Position numbers and translations under genes: made by a program. This document shows, one piece after another, positions 52,919 through 52,994 of a stretch of DNA of 52,994 nt; the first letter of the stretch is position 1; every line of letters begins with the position of its first letter. Location: NCBI RefSeq assembly GCF_003334765.1, contig NZ_QOWT01000028.1; one strand, 5' to 3'. Below the pieces are notes generated by a model. The model was not told where the DNA came from and made no database searches. It saw only the letters and a program-made list of their open reading frames with translations. Source of the stretch: Escherichia coli. Its GTDB lineage: Bacteria; Pseudomonadota; Gammaproteobacteria; Enterobacterales; Enterobacteriaceae.

Positions 52919-52994
52919 GGTGATGCTGCCAACTTACTGATTTAGTGTATGATGGTGTTTTTGAGGTGCTCCAGTGGCTTCTGTTTCTATCAGC
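52919..52994. mobile_element. IS1 insertion sequence, terminal inverted repeat and first 76 bp (truncated by the window end)
   Basis: ggtgatgctgccaacttactgatttagtgtatgatggtgtttttgaggtgctccagtggcttctgtttctatcagc matches the IS1 left end as I recall it. Confidence 0.9.

Follow-up and report, generated by a model that had tools for sequence, protein, structure and literature searches.

The end of the window downstream of rpsT

The window, i.e., the whole stretch of 52,994 nt of Escherichia coli DNA analysed here (contig NZ_QOWT01000028.1 of assembly GCF_003334765.1), ends inside an insertion sequence. Its last 76 bases read GGTGATGCTGCCAACTTACTGATTTAGTGTATGATGGTGTTTTTGAGGTGCTCCAGTGGCTTCTGTTTCTATCAGC and match, base for base, the first 76 nt of IS1A (768 bp) in K-12 MG1655 and of the IS1 found at the same site in strain H3. 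The features at this end of the window are as follows:

52404..52667, plus strand: rpsT, 30S ribosomal protein S20, an 87-aa ORF; upstream neighbour of the element, reading in the same direction as insA
52668..52918, no strand assigned: native spacer downstream of rpsT, 251 bp; 98.8% alignment to O157:H7 Sakai up to the junction
52689..52720, plus strand: intrinsic terminator hairpin of rpsT, a GC-rich stem with an A tract before and a U tract after it
52919..52994, plus strand: IS1 nt 1-76 (left end), ending where the window ends; 76/76 to IS1A and to the H3 copy
52919..52941, plus strand: IRL, the 23-bp left terminal inverted repeat; exact 23/23 match to GGTGATGCTGCCAACTTACTGAT
52926..52953, plus strand: promoter-like site, CTGCCA, 16 nt, TATGAT; sigma-70-like by consensus scan, 9/12 matches
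52930..52942, minus strand: match (AATCAGTAAGTTG) to the IHF consensus WATCARNNNNTTR by regex scan, inside IRL
52974..52994, plus strand: first 7 codons of insA, GTG GCT TCT GTT TCT ATC AGC (M/V-A-S-V-S-I-S), from translation and position

The rpsT annotation is carried by the identical stretch in MG1655, strain H3 and others, and between the rpsT stop codon and the IS1 end lie exactly 251 bp, the distance that the first-pass annotation had given. The hairpin behind rpsT folds at -20.2 kcal/mol (z = -3.9), a stability reached by none of 200 shuffled sequences, and terminator-like sites were also returned there by a pattern scan. A strong terminator between rpsT and IS1A has been described, and it has been proposed as the reason why transcription and transposition of IS1A run at about half the level of IS1E, a copy of identical sequence (PMC12428005). 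Lying ~200 bp upstream, the terminator would shield IS1 from rpsT read-through. An Rfam scan of 51900-52994 (E <= 1) gave five weak matches, all on the rpsT terminator and all below threshold (the best being the rimP leader, 26.5 bits vs. a gathering score of 47), which were set aside as chance; no known RNA family was found above threshold in the spacer or the IS1 end within the scanned region.

With up to 3 mismatches allowed, the 53-kb window contains the 23-bp IRL a single time and 0 of 100 dinucleotide-preserving shuffles contain it; the number expected by chance is 0. Together with the 76/76 identity to IS1A, this unique IRL bears out the earlier reading of the last 76 nt as an IS1 terminus. 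In the regex scan the whole 53-kb window, both strands included, contains the IHF consensus only 12 times, and IHF reportedly binds the IS1 ends, according to work by Gamas et al. in 1987. The promoter-like site lies partly within IRL, where the weak insA promoter would be expected. The IS1 promoter is known to overlap IRL partially, and IRL is the binding site of both InsA and the InsAB' transposase (PMC12428005). The GTG start of insA, which is defined as +56 to +331 of IS1 (PMC12428005), falls at IS1 nt 56 (window 52974); it is preceded by GAGG at 52963-52966 and opens the peptide VASVSIS. The placement of insA/insB beyond the window, as previously annotated, is accordingly right for all but the first 7 insA codons, which lie inside it. 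The end of the window should be annotated as IS1 (IRL and the insA 5' end) rather than as unknown sequence.

The element and its flanks in related genomes

In the window itself IS1 is read to nt 76 only, and its completeness and right junction are judged from relatives, which were sought among 5426 complete E. coli genomes. When the 76 nt were searched as part of a longer query, there were 75,377 matching places in 5252 of these genomes (median 10 per genome), on chromosomes and plasmids, so that the element is present as multiple dispersed copies. The exact left junction, recognised by a strict 80-nt junction query, is present in 535/5426 genomes, among them numerous wild isolates from humans, pigs, chickens and cattle; a looser 227-nt junction query (places covering >=80% of the query) gave 565/5426, the ~30 extra genomes coming from the looser query. 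The best 25-kb match to the window is strain H3, from human faeces in Mexico, with 3 differences in 24,995 nt, and another 17 isolates are given as 100.0% over the same 25 kb.

IS1 is 768 bp long at this site in K-12 (4152-4919 of the MG1655 record, L001), 720632, 2018-06-4CC, HSP425 and H3, the 768-bp continuation being found in the extended loci L001, L002, L004, L006 and L009. In the wild relatives examined for length the full 768 bp is thus present in four of five, the fifth being PK8241, whose copy is 767 bp with a 1-nt gap. IRR in the extended loci reads GGTAATGACTCCAACTTATTGAT and is identical to IRL at 18 of 23 positions. In the H3 copy 2 of the 768 nt deviate from IS1A; this copy has an insA of 91 aa from the GTG at nt 56, an A6C motif at nt 307-313, and a 232-aa InsAB' fusion that scores 243 bits on the IS1 family transposase model NF033558 (cutoff 100) and contains the Pfam domains Zn_ribbon_InsA, HTH_Tnp_IS1 and DDE_Tnp_IS1 (PF03811, PF12759, and PF03400). 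With IRL, IRR, a length of 768 bp, insA, the A6C motif and the InsAB' domains all in place, the H3 copy is an IS1-family element. According to the literature on IS1, InsA (91 aa) represses its own promoter by binding to the inverted repeats, and a rare -1 ribosomal frameshift at AAAAAAC (nt 307-313) joins insA and insB to give the 232-aa DDE transposase InsAB'. The IS1A of K-12 is one of two active consensus IS1 copies in that strain (PMC12428005).

Two kinds of right junction follow the element. The left flank is ATTGAGGTA; on the right stands AGCAATTAC in the K-12 type (type A) or AAAATGAGT in the window's relatives (type B). In K-12, IRR is followed by AGCAATTACTAC, with 175 bp up to nhaR; a 138-nt 3' remnant of a "fimbrial family protein" gene comes first, and then the convergent nhaR. 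In H3, 2018-06-4CC, PK8241 and HSP425, IRR is followed by AAAATGAGTTAG..., with a 228-nt remnant of the gene and 264 bp to nhaR; the type B junction therefore lies 89 bp further from nhaR than type A. Among the 5426 genomes type A is found in 422 and type B in 107, together 529, and 6 of the 535 genomes with the left junction carry neither right-junction type. Type A comprises K-12 derivatives along with some farm and human isolates, and the carriers of type B are all non-K-12.

Of the 18 isolates nearly identical to the window, 11 are type B, being among the type-B matches listed (60 of 107) or among the loci opened (H3, HSP425, and OW968288); the other 7 lie outside this cross-check. From these relatives we infer that the present genome probably carries a complete type-B element. 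Beyond the window the element would most likely continue to 768 bp, and the sequence expected here is IS1 up to nt 768, followed by AAAATGAGTTAGAAAAC..., with nhaR 264 bp on. The alternative, that in this genome IS1 is truncated or interrupted by another mobile element beyond the window, has precedents close by: OW968288, itself listed at 100.0% over 25 kb, has its IS1 split by the IS4-like ISVsa5 at ~nt 130 (L013, 543-2578), past the nt 76 to which the window is read, and PK8241 lacks one nucleotide. Against this stand H3 and four other relatives, whose elements run uninterrupted over 767-768 bp, and the near equality of the right-junction (529) and left-junction (535) counts, so that a damaged copy in this genome appears improbable. 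Extension into the relatives, which had been put forward as a check on the annotation, found the full 768-bp IS1 with insA, A6C and insB', apart from the interrupted OW968288 and the 767-bp PK8241 copy; the solitary inverted-repeat fragment named at the time as the contrary outcome is not the state in any relative opened.

Loss of neighbouring DNA and a proposed order of events

In strains without IS1 the spacer behind rpsT runs on into an AT-rich region upstream of espX1. O157:H7 Sakai, which has the same rpsT and nhaR borders and no IS1 between them, represents this empty-site state for O-island 1 and espX1, and its sequence past the junction continues TTAAACTTAAGACC.... As far as each breakpoint, the flanks of K-12 and of the window align with Sakai at 98.8-100%, and the intervening gap relative to Sakai is 6506 bp for type A and 6417 bp for type B. 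The 6506 bp that are replaced contain espX1, the fimbrial major-subunit, chaperone and usher genes ECs_0024, ECs_0023 and ECs_0022, and most of the split adhesin-like ECs_0019. The remnant next to IRR (L009, 30687-30914) is the 3' end of a gene for a 319-aa "fimbrial family protein" (full-length at L007, 12282-13241) that is split into two ORFs in O157. This protein gave no Pfam or NCBIfam match, so that its fimbrial nature is taken from the RefSeq annotation and its position in the operon only. O-island 1 (z0020-z0025) of O157:H7 includes the motility repressor fmrA (PMC10877973), and the published fmrA (z0021) appears to lie within the stretch of the split 319-aa gene.

The first-pass annotation had also expected IS1 to be flanked by an 8-9-bp target-site duplication, and on this point it does not hold, as the flanks are non-repeating in K-12 and in the nearest relatives. 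All six loci examined with the exact left junction have a deletion of 6.4-6.5 kb and no duplication, the duplication being absent because of the adjacent deletion. A flanking duplication records a simple insertion and does not belong to the element as such. A simple and recent insertion with an 8-9-bp duplication and intact neighbours, in which IRR would precede ATTGAGGTATTAAAC, is what IS1 transposition yields by default (PMC12428005), and such insertions exist at this locus in strains J6 and REL606. None of the six loci has that structure, however, and a search of the 5426 genomes with IRR, ATTGAGGTA and the native downstream sequence, which together represent the state before any deletion (IS1 here, a duplicated ATTGAGGTA and intact espX1), found that state in no genome. 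The query returned J6, whose element is offset by 3 bp and hence independent, and an unrelated IS1 near ypfM. A simple insertion can be given almost no credence as the history of the window's element.

The reading that we prefer, with a probability of roughly 0.88, is that the window ends in an IS1A-type IRL end, and that one ancestral insertion was followed by an IS1-promoted deletion of espX1 and the fimbrial operon. Under this reading, a common ancestor with K-12 would have received one IS1 copy in the AT-rich interval between rpsT and nhaR, after which an IS1-promoted deletion would have removed espX1 and the chaperone-usher fimbrial operon (O-island 1 in O157:H7). The first product would have been the 6417-bp gap of type B, as in the nearest relatives of the window, and a further 89-bp deletion anchored at IRR would have given the 6506-bp K-12 form, type A. 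A fixed left endpoint and two nested right endpoints are the classical signature of adjacent deletions anchored at an IS1 end, and that IS1 promotes adjacent deletions is well established, reportedly since the work of Reif and Saedler in 1975. Short-range hops of IS1 in E. coli, and deletions adjoining copies already in place, have been documented (PMC5009759). Since more of the native DNA is left in type B, type A cannot have been its ancestor; A may have come from B by another deletion, of 89 bp, starting at IRR, or the two may descend from an ancestor whose island was intact. If A came from B, the first deletion could have started at either end of the element, and the original insertion site could be either junction. 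We infer the order of insertion and then deletion because the ancestral state is absent from the 5426 genomes.

As for the mechanism, the deletion may have come about by intramolecular transposition, or by a local hop and recombination between two IS1 copies. In mutation-accumulation lines, 72 of 98 IS-associated deletions were attributed to an existing IS1 and a new nearby copy (PMC5009759), and both mechanisms give the same product, a single IS1 without a duplication. Searches aimed at other arrangements turned up no genome in which two IS1 copies bracket O-island 1. That identity of product also means that the end state does not separate the two, and we consider RecA-dependent recombination of two direct IS1 copies a possible, somewhat less probable route than one-step intramolecular replicative transposition.

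A separate question is whether K-12 and the lineage of the window share a single insertion. The IS1A of MG1655 (insA1/insB1, between rpsT and nhaR at ~19.8-20.6 kb) agrees exactly with the window in its left junction, its orientation and its first 76 nt, and differs from that of the window's relatives in that the latter keep 89 bp more of the fimbrial remnant (264 vs. 175 bp to nhaR). The final 1215 nt of the window show no difference from K-12, and neither, once the 89 bp are set aside, do the 1.7 kb past IS1 in H3. Taken as a whole, the window falls into four blocks of 97.9-99.0% identity to MG1655 and has three indel differences from it, with 54 differences in its last 4227 nt and 262 SNPs in its last 14.3 kb. 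Two unrelated gains of IS1 at the same hotspot nucleotide could be imagined, since three separate IS1 sites lie within ~1 kb in different strains, one of them only 3 bp away. Yet position and orientation are the same, no mismatch occurs within 1.2 kb to the left or 1.7 kb to the right of the element in chromosomes that are 1-2% diverged elsewhere, and both types lack a duplication and have right junctions nested 89 bp apart in the same gene, all of which makes independent gains very improbable. One insertion inherited by descent, with later recombination of the flanks, is preferred because the flanks, the junction nucleotide and the orientation are identical. At the level of sequence, this points to a single ancestral insertion that would have been followed by deletions anchored at the IS1 end.

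Side by side with MG1655, the divergence of the window is mosaic. Over 38724-52994 the SNP density reaches 37 in 45500-46000 (rihC) and falls to 0-3 per 500 nt in 47000-48999, and there are no SNPs after 51779. This pattern suggests recombination tracts, with an IS1-linked haplotype shared with K-12. The three indel differences are these. Between rluA and djlA (15059-15178) the window has ~118 bp of REP-like sequence vs. ~1.5 kb in MG1655, where the segment consists of yabP, yabQ and a transposase-fragment pseudogene; the difference is either a K-12-specific island or a deletion in the lineage of the window. Between caiE and caiF (38592-38724) the window has ~130 bp extra relative to K-12, a duplicated REP/BIME-type unit (GCCGGATAAG...GCATCCGGC), and the araA-araD intergenic repeats, a REP region (8130-8186), span ~55 bp vs. 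~170 bp with tandem copies in K-12.

An IS1 hotspot and its bearing on O-island 1

IS1 prefers AT-rich targets. The DNA just past the left junction is 25% GC, compared with 53.5% for the window, and other strains carry IS1 copies of their own in this interval. In J6 the element (L007, 8273-9040) lies 3 bp to the left of the window junction in the same orientation, with a perfect 9-bp duplication, CACATTGAG, and espX1 kept. The copy in E. coli B REL606 lies within espX1, points the other way and is flanked by an 8-bp duplication, GAAGAGAT (L011, record region 23346-24043). These copies belong to the same element family and occupy the same AT-rich interval; unlike the relatives of the window, they have intact duplications and have kept the neighbouring DNA. 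Independent IS1 insertions nearby mark an AT-rich hotspot. E. coli HS has no IS1 here and a separately decayed operon, and HS, REL606 and J6 have in common a separate internal loss in the operon (usher N-terminus, chaperone, and major subunit).

Comparison with strains lacking the insertion, as had been proposed for the annotation, places the deletion among derived states. Sakai keeps the 6.4-6.5 kb, and the left site is uninterrupted in 3652 of the 5426 genomes, which indicates that the state with IS1 and the deletion, as in K-12, is derived. O-island 1 was defined as O157-specific relative to K-12; given the uninterrupted left site in the majority of genomes, the difference is a loss in the K-12 lineage rather than a gain in O157. 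The earlier description of IS1 at this position as characteristic of K-12-type chromosomes is right in so far as K-12 has the same left junction, and goes too far in that the junction also occurs in wild isolates and the window itself is not K-12. The window should therefore not carry a K-12 label.

IS1A and its site in K-12 are already known, and the nested junctions and the hotspot are minor observations beside them; the literature searched contained no paper on the missing duplication or on nested junctions at IS1A. One practical consequence concerns the checking of IS calls, since a check based on the duplication would wrongly fail this textbook copy of IS1A. Another is that the two nested right junctions offer a cheap PCR-size marker that tells K-12-like strains from other carriers.

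The at least three independent insertions and the two nested deletion endpoints are also the basis for a broader and speculative reading, which we hold to be unlikely: that the interval is a recurrent IS1 target at which stepwise IS1-anchored deletions are eroding O-island 1 and espX1 in commensals. If this were true, the loss of FmrA in the K-12/ST10-like lineage might have been selectable through motility, and the nested endpoints would serve as a simple marker of lineage among these strains.
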